Assembly (NCBI RefSeq): GCF_048403405.1
Contig: NZ_CP183129.1
Direction: 5' to 3' (one strand)
Source of the DNA: Escherichia coli
Lineage (GTDB): Bacteria; Pseudomonadota; Gammaproteobacteria; Enterobacterales; Enterobacteriaceae
Length of the DNA: 64,000 nt
Shown here: one piece after another, positions 49,655-53,000 of the stretch
Numbering within the stretch: position 1 is the first letter of the stretch
Layout of the letters: each line of letters starts with the position of its first letter
Notes under the pieces: generated by a model
Told to the model about the DNA's origin: nothing
Databases searched by the model: none
Seen by the model: only the letters and a program-made list of their open reading frames with translations
Program-made: the position numbers and the translations under genes

Positions 49655-50016
49655 CATATTTTGCATTTGAATATTGGTCAGGATCTCACACCTGCTTCAT
49701 GTGAAACTCTTCCCTGATGATTTCTGCCGGGCTACCGGCTAGTTCTCTTTCGCAGTTTGCCAGGCGGTATAGGTATTTTCAGGAGGAAAAGACTCGGCAT
49801 GTTTGGGATTATTAAGCTGACAATTCATACGATTACGGGAATGTGGGTCAGTATTGTGTTGTTTAAATTGATGACGAATGGCTGGAGTGGTTTCTACTTT
49901 CAGTGCTGTGTACTAAGCCTGGTATTCCTGACGGTTAGCTGGTTGTTGAGTGGTGAATGGTTAGCAGGAAAGAGTAAGGCTGAACCCTCACGTTCAACCT
50001 TACTCTCATTTACACG

Positions 50017-53000
50017 TTACGCTTTTTTAAAGCGGGCAAAGAGATGTTCCACTACAACGAAAAAGACCGGAACGAAGTAAATTGCCAGCACTGTTGCGGC
50101 AAACATCCCGCCCATCACGCCGGTACCTACCGCGTTTTGCGCGCCAGAACCGGCACCATGACTGATAACCAGCGGCAGCACGCCGAGAATAAAGGCCAGA
50201 GAGGTCATCAGGATTGGGCGTAAACGCATCCGCGCCGCTTCGATGATTGCCTCTATCGGCGTTTTCCCTTCTTTCTGCATCATCTCAACGGCAAATTCGA
50301 CAATCAGGATGGCGTTCTTGGCGGAAAGCCCGATGGTGGTCAGCAAACCAACCTGGAAGTAGACGTCATTACTTAAGCCGCGTAGATCGGTGGCCAGTAA
50401 TGCGCCAACGACGCCTAACGGTACAACCAACATCACCGAGAACGGAATTGACCAGCTCTCATAAAGTGCGGCGAGGGCGAGGAACACCACGACCAGTGAA
50501 ATGGCATACAGCGCGGGAGCCTGATTTGAGGATAACGCTTCCTGATACGACAGTCCGGTCCATGAGTAGCCGACGCCTGCCGGAAGTTTAGCGACCAGGT
50601 CTGCCATAAATTTCATGGCGTCACCGGTACTTTTCCCGGCCGCCGCTTCACCTAAAATCTCCATTGACGGGATGCCGTTGTAGCGTTCCAGTCGCGGTGA
50701 ACCATAGGTCCATTCGGTAGACGAATAGGCCGAAAGCGGTGCCATCGTGCCAGAGGCGTTGCGTACATACCATTGGTTGATGTTATCCGGCAACATACGG
50801 AACGGCGTGCCTGCCTGGACATACACTTTTTTCACCCGCCCCTGGTTGAGGAAGTCGTTCACGTAGCTGCTGCCGAAGGCGGTGGAAATTGTCTGGTTGA
50901 TATCAGACAGCGCCACACCCATTGCCTCAGCTTTCGCGGCGTTGACGTTCACTTTGAACATCGGCGTATCTTCCAGTCCGTTCGGACGTACCCCGGTGAC
51001 TTGGTTCGGTGATTGCGCTGCCAGTGATAATAGCTCGTTTCGCGCCTGGGTCAGTTTTTCGTGCCCCAGGTTGCCGTTGTCCAGCAGTTCCATATCAAAA
51101 CCTGACGCGGTACCCAGTTCAGCCACCGCGGGTAAGTTGAACGGGAAGACGACGGCTTTATTGATACTGCTTAACGCAATCATTGCCCGCTGAATGATCG
51201 CGGTAACCGAGTTTTCCTCGCCGACACGTTCAGACCACGGTTTGAGGCTGATAAACGCCAGACCGTTGTTTTGCCCCTGGCCGCTGAAGCCAAAGCCGCC
51301 AACGGTAAACACCGACTGAACATTATCTTTCTCTTTAGTCAGATAATAATCCGTCACCTGTTGCAGCACTTTCGTGGTGTTAACCATGGTGGCACCGGAA
51401 GGTAACTGCGCGGTGGTCATAAATACCCCCTGATCCTCTTCTGGTAAGAAAGAGGTCGGCGTGCGCAGGAACAGCACCGCCATCCCGGCGCAAATCAGCA
51501 GGTAGACCACCATGTAGCGACCGGTACAACGCAACAGCGAGCGGGTACTGTCGGTATAGTGCTGAGTTGATTTTTCAAACAGCGTGTTGAAGCGTGCGAA
51601 CAGGGCGTTAGGTTTGTGACCGCCTTCCGGCGCGGCTTTCAGAATGGTGGCGCACAGGGCAGGGGTCAGGCTCATTGCCACAAATACTGAAAGCAGCATG
51701 GAGGAGATCAGCGTGATGGAGAACTGGCGGTAGATCTCCCCGGTTGCACCGCTCATAAAGGCCATCGGCATAAACACTGCGGAAAGAACAACGGCAATCC
51801 CGACCAGCGCACGTTGGATCTGCCCCATCGATTTATGCGTCGCTTCCTTCGGCGGTAGCTTATCTTCCGCAATGACACGCTCGACGTTCTCCACCACCAC
51901 GATGGCGTCATCCACCAGTAACCCTATCGCCAGCACCATCCCGAACATAGTTAACGTGTTGATGGTGAAACCGACCGCCGACAAGATCGCAAACGTCCCG
52001 AGAATAACCACCGGTACGGCAATCGTCGGGATGATTGTGGCACGGAAATTCTGCAAAAACAGATACATGACCAGGAAGACGAGGATGATAGCCTCAACCA
52101 GTGTTTTAAAAACTTCCTGAATAGAAATTTCGATAAACGGCGTGGTGTCGTAAGGATAAACCGTCTTCAGACTTGCGGGGAAATAGGCTGATAAGCGGTT
52201 CAGCTCCTCTTTGACTGCCCGCGAGGTATCCAGGGCGTTTGCTCCGGTAGCCAGTTTGATGGCGATCCCGGCAGCAGGTTTGCCGTTATAGCGCGCCACG
52301 GTGGAATAATCTTCCGCTCCAAGTTCGACGCGGGCGACATCACGCAGCAGCACTTGCGAACCATCTTGCTGAACTTTCAACAGGATTTTGCCAAATTCTT
52401 CCGGCGTTTGCAGACGCGTCTGCACAATGATCGAGGCGTTTAGTTGCTGGTCTGCCGCCTGTGGCATGCCACCCAGTTGACCACCAGAAATCTGGTTGTT
52501 CTGCACCTTAATCTGGGAAATAACATCGGAAGGTACCAGATTGTATTTATTGAGTTTTTGCGGGTCCAGCCAGATACGCATGGCGTACTCGGAACCAAAG
52601 AGCTGTACACTACCAACGCCCGCGGTACGGCTTAGCGGGTCTTTGATATTAGACGCTACATAGTCCGCGATATCGTACTGGTTGAGGCTGCCGTTATCAG
52701 AAATAAACGCCGCTACCATCAGGATATTACTGCTCGACTTATCGACGCTAATCCCCTGCTGCTGCACCGCTTCAGGTAATGAAGGCATAGCGAGTTGCAG
52801 TTTATTTTGCACCTGAACCTGTGCGATATCAGGCGATGTCCCAGTCTCGAAGGTCAGAGTAATAGAGGCATTACCCGCCGCATCACTGGTTGAAGACATG
52901 TACATCAGGCCATCAAGCCCATTCATATTTTGCTCAATCACCTGAGTGACCGAGTCTTCTACCGTTTGCGCATCGGCACCTGGATAGGTAGCGCTGATGG

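Follow-up and report, generated by a model that had tools for sequence, protein, structure and literature searches.

The acid fitness island of Escherichia coli and Shigella contains, between the convergent genes gadW and mdtF, an open reading frame (ORF) of 93 codons. In this study, we analyzed this ORF in a stretch of 64,000 nt from E. coli (contig NZ_CP183129.1 of assembly GCF_048403405.1), hereafter referred to as the window. Our results indicate that the region is very probably a genuine gene, specific to Escherichia, for a small inner-membrane protein of 93 residues. This gene corresponds to sORF15, which was found by inspecting the 3' untranslated region (UTR) of gadW in ribosome profiling (Ribo-seq) data obtained under acid stress (Schumacher et al., 2023; mSystems 8:e01037-23, PMC10746267). 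sORF15 is therefore already described and not new, and its class, that of the small membrane proteins, is an ordinary one. To the published description we add here an analysis of the ratio of nonsynonymous to synonymous substitution rates (dN/dS), the distribution of the gene across the genus, a truncated homologue in Escherichia fergusonii, and the geometry of the overlap with mdtF.

Results

The small ORF is conserved as a reading frame across Escherichia

In the window, gadA, gadX, and gadW lie on the plus strand, and mdtF, mdtE, and gadE run convergently on the minus strand. The stop codons of gadW (49654) and mdtF (50017) are separated by an intergenic gap of 362 nt. An ATG at 49799-49801 opens a frame of 93 codons that closes at a TAA at 50078-50080, and whose translation begins MFGIIKLTIHTITGMWVSIVLFKLMTNGWSGFYFQ. 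An earlier examination of this DNA, the sequence-only reading, had proposed the same 93-codon frame as a low-confidence candidate gene for a small hydrophobic protein, and its position was confirmed on the sequence and on the ORF list. The length of the ORF alone lies within chance, since ORFs of 114 and 103 amino acids occur antisense in mdtF within the next 1.2 kb. We regard the ORF as more than a chance frame because of the comparison between species, and not because of its length.

The genomes for this comparison were gathered by a scan anchored on GadW instead of the small ORF, in order to avoid bias, with one genome per species. Six lineages were retrieved in this way (E. coli SCPM-O-B-8794, Escherichia sp. 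MOD1-EC7003, E69, Escherichia sp. E1V33, E. whittamii, and E. albertii), which together with the window and K-12 form a set of eight. From the ATG to the TAA (282 nt), we found neither an indel nor a stop codon in any of the eight. In contrast, the 144-nt spacer upstream of the ATG carries an 11-bp deletion and single-base indels across the same lineages, and its identity to the window is 74-76% in the distant species. Inside this otherwise variable spacer, the block ATTTTCAGGAGGAAAA, which holds the Shine-Dalgarno (SD) sequence, is invariant in all eight lineages, as are AGGAGGAAAA, the ATG, and the 11 nt that separate the SD core from it.

We then estimated dN/dS by the method of Nei and Gojobori (NG86) for codons 1-72, the portion outside the overlap with mdtF, and for codons 1-54, the portion upstream of a hairpin described below. 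Across codons 1-72, the variable sites are distributed over codon positions 1, 2, and 3 as 20, 14, and 41, and dN/dS amounts to 0.08-0.25 in frame, compared with 0.38-2.9 in the two shifted frames. In codons 1-54, the ratio is 0.04-0.16 (Fisher p down to 2e-10). The frame is thus intact from E. coli to E. albertii, with a dN/dS of about 0.1 outside the mdtF overlap. The nonsynonymous divergence from K-12 in the three most distant lineages is 0.07-0.09 for the small ORF and 0.13-0.15 for gadW; in the three closer lineages the small ORF lies slightly above gadW, and the dN/dS values of both genes are similar overall.

The distribution of the gene is in line with these data. A 93-residue version is present in E. 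marmotae (P0009), 37 of 40 full-length copies from metagenomes carry the small ORF without disruption, and the exact protein encoded in the window was found on at least 1000 contigs in public data. Altogether, the comparison shows, at the level of sequence, that purifying selection has preserved the ORF, its SD, and its reading frame across the genus, and it provides strong evidence for a protein-coding gene restricted to Escherichia, including Shigella.

Published ribosome footprints coincide with the conserved frame

The published coordinates of sORF15 are NC_000913.3:3663464-3663745(-), with a product of 93 amino acids (Table S7 of Schumacher et al., 2023). They are the same as the position that we derived from the alignment of the window to K-12. 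The K-12 translation is identical to sORF15 and agrees with that of the window in 92 of 93 residues, residue 65 being an arginine in the window and a cysteine in K-12. Both descriptions share the locus, the ATG, and the stop codon inside mdtF, and nothing differs between them structurally.

Between pH 7.6 and pH 4.4, sORF15 increases by a log2 fold change of +4.21 in Ribo-seq (adjusted p 1e-38) and of +4.03 in RNA, its translation efficiency remains unchanged, and GadW increases by +3.03 in Ribo-seq (PMC10746267). Ribosome footprints that rise 2^4.2-fold at pH 4.4 have therefore been published exactly on this ORF, and they support, jointly with the conservation of the frame, what had been put forward with low confidence from the sequence. 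From the RNA-seq and Ribo-seq data, the same authors described co-transcription of gadW and sORF15. They also predicted two transmembrane helices (DeepTMHMM) and a location in the inner membrane, and they detected the protein on a western blot after 1 h of arabinose-induced expression from pBAD24-sORF15:3xFLAG with 15 nt of the native leader. In addition, they proposed a link of sORF15 to GadC or MdtF (PMC10746267).

One published statement could not be reproduced. Schumacher et al. list homologues of more than 80% identity in Vibrio, Klebsiella, Salmonella, and Enterococcus, and each of the named database matches that we obtained belongs to Escherichia or Shigella, apart from broader labels of UniRef clusters. 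A literature search returned no follow-up on sORF15 and no paper containing the peptide string, and a paper on RNase III and antisense RNAs mentions gadW only in its reference list.

The annotation of the locus is uneven. No gene is annotated in the gap between gadW and mdtF in the RefSeq record of K-12 MG1655 or by the Prokaryotic Genome Annotation Pipeline (PGAP) on the other E. coli genomes inspected. The sequence-only reading had named no annotated gene at this place, which holds for RefSeq but overlooked both the 2023 publication and the entries for E. coli, S. flexneri, and S. boydii in GenBank and UniProt, where the small ORF appears as "hypothetical protein" or "Uncharacterised protein".

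Start signals of the small ORF

The ATG had been credited with a strong SD at optimal spacing. The core AGGAGG is indeed strong, but the distance of 11 nt to the ATG exceeds the textbook optimum of 5-9 nt. A mechanical reading of the ORF reaches upstream to a TTG at 49757, which would yield 107 amino acids. We rejected this longer form, as the stretch from the TTG to the conserved SD block has five codons, four of which encode different residues in E. coli and E. albertii, and the published Ribo-seq data assign the ATG as the start of sORF15. An independent promoter for the small ORF was also rejected, if weakly: a promoter scan of the plus strand detected no sigma-70-like promoter in the spacer from gadW to the small ORF, and the alignment of the eight lineages contains no conserved -10-like block there.

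Features of the predicted protein

The hydropathy profile displays two hydrophobic segments, at about residues 3-24 and 31-52. The sequence-only reading was right about a hydrophobic, transmembrane-like stretch but counted one segment instead of two. An AlphaFold2 model built from a shallow alignment places helices at residues 2-26, 31-58, and 65-88, with a mean predicted local distance difference test (pLDDT) score of 64. The motif NGWSGFYFQCC takes in the short loop after the first helix and the start of the second, and its two adjacent cysteines are invariant. The C-terminal tail is basic, with 11 lysines and arginines against 2 aspartates and glutamates. We also considered an amphipathic C-terminal helix, which was discarded given a hydrophobic moment of only 0.10-0.17.

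The protein matches no family in Pfam (E<=10), NCBIfam (E<=10), PADLOC (E<=1), or a PDB sequence profile search (E<=1). A search with a profile hidden Markov model (HMM) of 1.84 billion representative proteins returned 19 matches, all of them Escherichia variants or fragments and the E. fergusonii homologue, and no wider family.

A truncated homologue in E. fergusonii

In E. fergusonii ATCC 35469, we found a homologue of 54 residues in the syntenic slot between mdtF and a GadW orthologue that is 62% identical. Its identity to the E. coli protein is 49% overall, and both hydrophobic helices and the GWSGF.F.CC motif are kept. Compared with E. coli, the proportion of synonymous differences is 0.97, that is, saturated, and that of nonsynonymous differences is 0.26-0.32 (Fisher p about 7e-13), the differences being distributed over codon positions 1, 2, and 3 as 22, 11, and 40. 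The homologue does not have the basic C-terminal tail. It ends before a separate GC-rich hairpin, GGCCGG-TTTCC-CGGCC, that lies between the two stop codons. The gadX-like gene of this genome lies in inverted orientation, and a gene for an appA-like phosphatase follows it.

The overlap with mdtF and the hairpin inside the ORF

As the sequence-only reading had stated, the frame runs into the 3' end of mdtF on the other strand, and the coordinates give an overlap of 64 nt. By frame arithmetic, the third codon positions of both genes coincide in the overlap, so that silent changes in either gene are mostly silent in the other one as well. The five variable sites of this segment all fall at codon position 3 of the small ORF. 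Since the third positions coincide, conservation of the last 21 codons is confounded by the constraint on MdtF, and we discarded it as evidence for the small protein.

Just upstream of the overlap, the ORF crosses an inverted repeat. The repeat noticed earlier is real and is crossed by the ORF, but it sits at 49970-50007 and not at 49963-50000. On the minus strand it forms a stem of 16 bp (-27.3 kcal/mol, z -4.2) that is followed by UCUUUCCUGC, a weak U-tract, and is terminator-like according to the scan. On the plus strand it forms 14 bp with one C-A mismatch (-24.1 kcal/mol, z -3.7), and no U-tract follows directly. Both strands fold better than all of 200 shuffles. The pairing is kept in 98.4% of the alignment cells across the eight lineages, and Escherichia sp. 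E1V33 carries one compensatory change, from U-A to C-G; with this single pair, covariation has no statistical support, as 123 of 500 shuffles do as well. The sequence-only reading took the repeat for the probable mdtF terminator, which is plausible: the stem forms better on the mdtF strand, with UCUUUCCUGC after it, and the hairpin is probably the terminator or a 3' stabilizer of mdtF. Ribosomes translating the small gene must melt this hairpin.

These features raise the question of whether the conservation of the region reflects a function of the RNA, either as the mdtF terminator, as a regulatory or stability element in the gadW 3' UTR, or through antisense pairing between the 3' ends of the gadW and mdtEF transcripts. 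In favor of such a function, a stable hairpin inside the ORF is kept in eight lineages, the final 64 nt overlap mdtF in antisense, the spacer holds two further conserved stem-loops, and the gadX-gadW mRNA is known to be controlled by the antisense RNA GadY, which was found at 48571-48684. However, the hairpin covers only codons 58-70, and the strongest coding signature comes from codons 1-54. Moreover, RNA structure does not predict the 3-nt periodicity of the changes, no Rfam family matches at the small ORF, and both protein helices persist in E. fergusonii, where the terminator is a different, GC-rich one. An explanation by RNA function in place of a protein is thus very unlikely, and an RNA role could coexist with that of the protein.

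That a chance frame lies here in the long 3' UTR of gadW, on which the footprints would represent pervasive, non-productive translation without a functional protein, is very improbable. Antisense ORFs of similar length nearby in mdtF, the lack of a RefSeq or PGAP call in the records inspected, protein evidence that comes only from an arabinose-induced plasmid, and the lack of conservation of sORF14, which was reported beside sORF15 in the same UTR, would all fit this explanation. It does not account for a dN/dS of about 0.1 that appears in this frame but not in the others, for changes biased to third positions, for 282 nt without indels next to a spacer with indels, for the invariant SD, or for a frame kept in E. 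fergusonii despite saturated synonymous sites.

A hydrophobic peptide resembling type I toxins, which would depolarize the membrane and whose mRNA would be kept in check by the antisense 3' end of mdtEF, would be consistent with the small size and strong hydrophobicity of the product, with the convergent overlapping transcript, and with an omission from annotation that is shared by many type I toxins, but we consider it very unlikely: there is no match in PADLOC or in Pfam (E<=10), which covers toxin models such as Hok/Gef and Ldr; sORF15 comprises 93 residues with two helices, while type I toxins are typically single helices of fewer than 60 residues; the gene is single-copy at a fixed syntenic position across the genus; the antisense overlap touches only the 3' end and not the ribosome-binding site, and no Rfam RNA lies at the small ORF; the gene is co-induced with a stress regulon and not repressed; and a western blot detected the protein after 1 h of expression from pBAD, in a paper that reports no toxicity assay (PMC10746267). 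The evidence is best accounted for by the small inner-membrane protein gene sORF15, whose features are collected in Table 1.

Table 1. Positions of the small gene, its parts, and its immediate neighbors in the window, and of the E. fergusonii homologue.
Feature	Position	Strand	Remarks
gadW	48928..49654	+	Upstream gene, whose transcript would carry the small ORF; frameshifted in the window (split ORFs)
Shine-Dalgarno core AGGAGG	49782..49787	+	11 nt before the ATG; within the invariant block ATTTTCAGGAGGAAAA
Coding sequence of the small ORF (sORF15)	49799..50080, including stop	+	ORF list, match to the published table, conservation
Predicted transmembrane helix 1	49805..49870	+	About residues 3-24; hydropathy, AlphaFold2 helix 2-26, DeepTMHMM (PMC10746267)
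NGWSGFYFQCC motif	49877..49909	+	Residues 27-37; most conserved part; short loop and start of helix 2
Predicted transmembrane helix 2	49889..49954	+	About residues 31-52; AlphaFold2 helix 31-58; highest hydropathy of the protein
Stem-loop	49970..50007	-	16-bp stem shortly downstream of the mdtF stop; within codons 58-70 of the small ORF
mdtF	50017-53130	-	3' end overlaps the small ORF
Antisense overlap of the small ORF and mdtF	50017..50080	both	64 nt; last 21 codons and stop of the small ORF against last 20 codons and stop of mdtF
E. fergusonii homologue region	5979-6230 of the extracted locus, CU928158.2		54 residues

Neighboring features

Several features around the small gene were recorded. 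The gadW gene of the window carries a 2-bp deletion (CA, beside a C6 run) near 49181 with respect to K-12 and FDAARGOS_497, which splits it into ORFs at 48928-49212 and 49187-49654. This deletion occurs in none of 5,409 matching complete E. coli genomes, the best identity of 98.0% reflecting the 2-nt gap itself, and it marks either a pseudogene specific to this strain or an error in the sequencing. An IS1 element of 768 bp (47004-47771) interrupts gadX at about codon 16, with terminal inverted repeats of 23 nt and a 9-bp target duplication, CAAGACATA; its transposase ORF occupies 47019-47522 on the minus strand (PF03400, E 3e-75). With IS1 in gadX and the frameshift in gadW, the two AraC-type Gad regulators of the window strain seem to be inactivated, while the small ORF is intact. 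The best match of the 12-kb region among complete E. coli genomes is only 99.2%, which places the window strain outside that collection; it may be a Shigella.

The spacer between gadW and the small ORF contains sORF14 (49701-49742), a 13-residue ORF with a GTG start that was published beside sORF15 (PMC10746267). In our comparison, its start is GTA in E69, its stop is lost in five lineages (TAG to AAG) and deleted in a sixth, and two lineages have indels. It is probably not a conserved coding gene. A stem-loop at the gadW stop codon (49649-49688) pairs TCCTGAC at 49649-49655 with GTCAGGA at 49677-49683, and the block GGTCAGGATCTC that follows it is invariant in the eight lineages, in a spacer that is otherwise variable. 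This element could be a processing, stability, or binding site. A second hairpin, GCCGG-GCTA-CCGGC at 49726-49739, is followed by a T-rich stretch and is terminator-like on the plus strand. Its stem is kept in other species, partly through wobble changes, and it could act as an attenuator on transcription that continues from gadW into the small gene. Finally, the small RNA GadY lies between gadX and gadW on the minus strand (48571-48684; full-length Rfam match, 150 bits, E 2.5e-33), and it was the only match in an Rfam scan of 48400-50300.

Discussion

We propose that sORF15 has no promoter of its own and that ribosomes would reach it through its own ribosome-binding site in the long 3' portion of the gadW (gadXW) mRNA. 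This proposal is based on the absence of a promoter-like site and of a conserved -10 block on the plus strand, and on the rise of its RNA together with gadW. As part of this transcript, sORF15 would thus belong to the Gad regulon of acid resistance. The protein would be made under severe acid stress and would insert into the membrane as a helical hairpin; the strongly basic tail suggests that its N- and C-termini both face the cytoplasm. With both ends cytoplasmic, the conserved NGWSGFYFxCC motif would be located at the periplasmic turn. The ancestral functional unit would be the two-helix hairpin, and the basic C-terminal tail may be dispensable. We take the hairpin as the core because the tail is missing in E. 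fergusonii, because database variants carry it in a different frame, and because its conservation is inseparable from that of MdtF.

As regards its function, we tentatively suggest that sORF15 may bind a larger membrane protein of the same island, with MdtF as the first candidate and GadC as the second. The position beside mdtF backs this possibility, and gadW and gadE-mdtEF are both induced by YdeO. In addition, MdtF has been co-purified with the small protein AcrZ, which makes a site for small proteins on MdtF plausible. AcrZ, a protein of 49 residues that acts on the resistance-nodulation-division (RND) pump AcrB, resembles sORF15 in being a small inner-membrane protein of E. coli that was missed early and is co-regulated with a stress response; moreover, the sORF15 gene adjoins and overlaps the gene of MdtF, a paralogue of AcrB. 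On the other hand, sORF15 has two predicted helices in 93 residues, whereas AcrZ has one in 49, and sORF15 is encoded convergently to the pump gene, on the transcript of the regulator. MgrB, SafA/B1500, and MgtS are likewise short, hydrophobic, stress-induced proteins, which pass the membrane once and bind a sensor kinase or a transporter. Unlike them, sORF15 is restricted to Escherichia and has a turn motif, GWSGF.F.CC, that is unique to it, and there is no homology with any of the three.

A more specific, and more doubtful, version of this idea is that sORF15 might be a dedicated small subunit or regulator of the MdtEF-TolC pump, which is induced by acid and anaerobiosis, or of GadC, acting through the periplasmic GWSGFYFxCC turn. 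The layout of the locus might then couple the expression of regulator, subunit, and pump at the RNA level, as the coding sequence would pass through the terminator hairpin of the pump gene and continue for 64 nt antisense into the last mdtF codons, with coinciding wobble positions.

Several observations weigh against sORF15 as a functional gene of this kind. In the single paper that describes it (PMC10746267), we found no chromosomal tag, proteomic detection, knockout phenotype, or interaction data. The 11-nt spacing between SD and ATG is longer than optimal, and the hairpin within the ORF could end some plus-strand transcripts before the stop codon. Three of the 40 metagenome copies are disrupted, by W48stop, by an indel at the hairpin together with the mdtF end, and by a junction break at about codon 26. 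Moreover, databases hold variants with the C-terminal tail in another frame (P0008, with 28 members, P0013, P0022, P0026, and P0033). These variants keep residues 1-57 and trace to length changes of a T6 run (50023-50028) or to indels in the hairpin (49970-50007). The T6 run encodes the last two lysines of MdtF and is present in all eight genomes and in 39 of the 40 metagenome copies, and the variants could be real variation or homopolymer sequencing errors. Because of them and of the disrupted copies, the gene, or at least its tail, does not appear to be indispensable.

The E. fergusonii homologue adds to these points. It has neither the E. coli ATG, which is ATA there, nor an SD, and its predicted start is a GTG located 19 nt after the gadW stop. 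Because of these losses, its expression is uncertain. With regard to the partner, nothing in the sequence favors MdtF over other proteins, and sORF15 is not similar to AcrZ: the searches at E<=10 gave no match to the AcrZ family in Pfam, which we take to hold an AcrZ model, or in NCBIfam.

The acid fitness island has been studied intensively, and yet the K-12 reference lacks a gene that is constrained (dN/dS about 0.1) as strongly as the neighboring regulator. The comparative data presented here lift sORF15 from a Ribo-seq candidate to a well-supported gene that deserves annotation, and they narrow the putative functional core to the two-helix hairpin with the invariant GWSGF.F.CC turn. If sORF15 indeed modulates MdtEF or GadC, it would represent a new component of acid resistance, and of the drug efflux linked to acid, in gut E. 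coli and Shigella.

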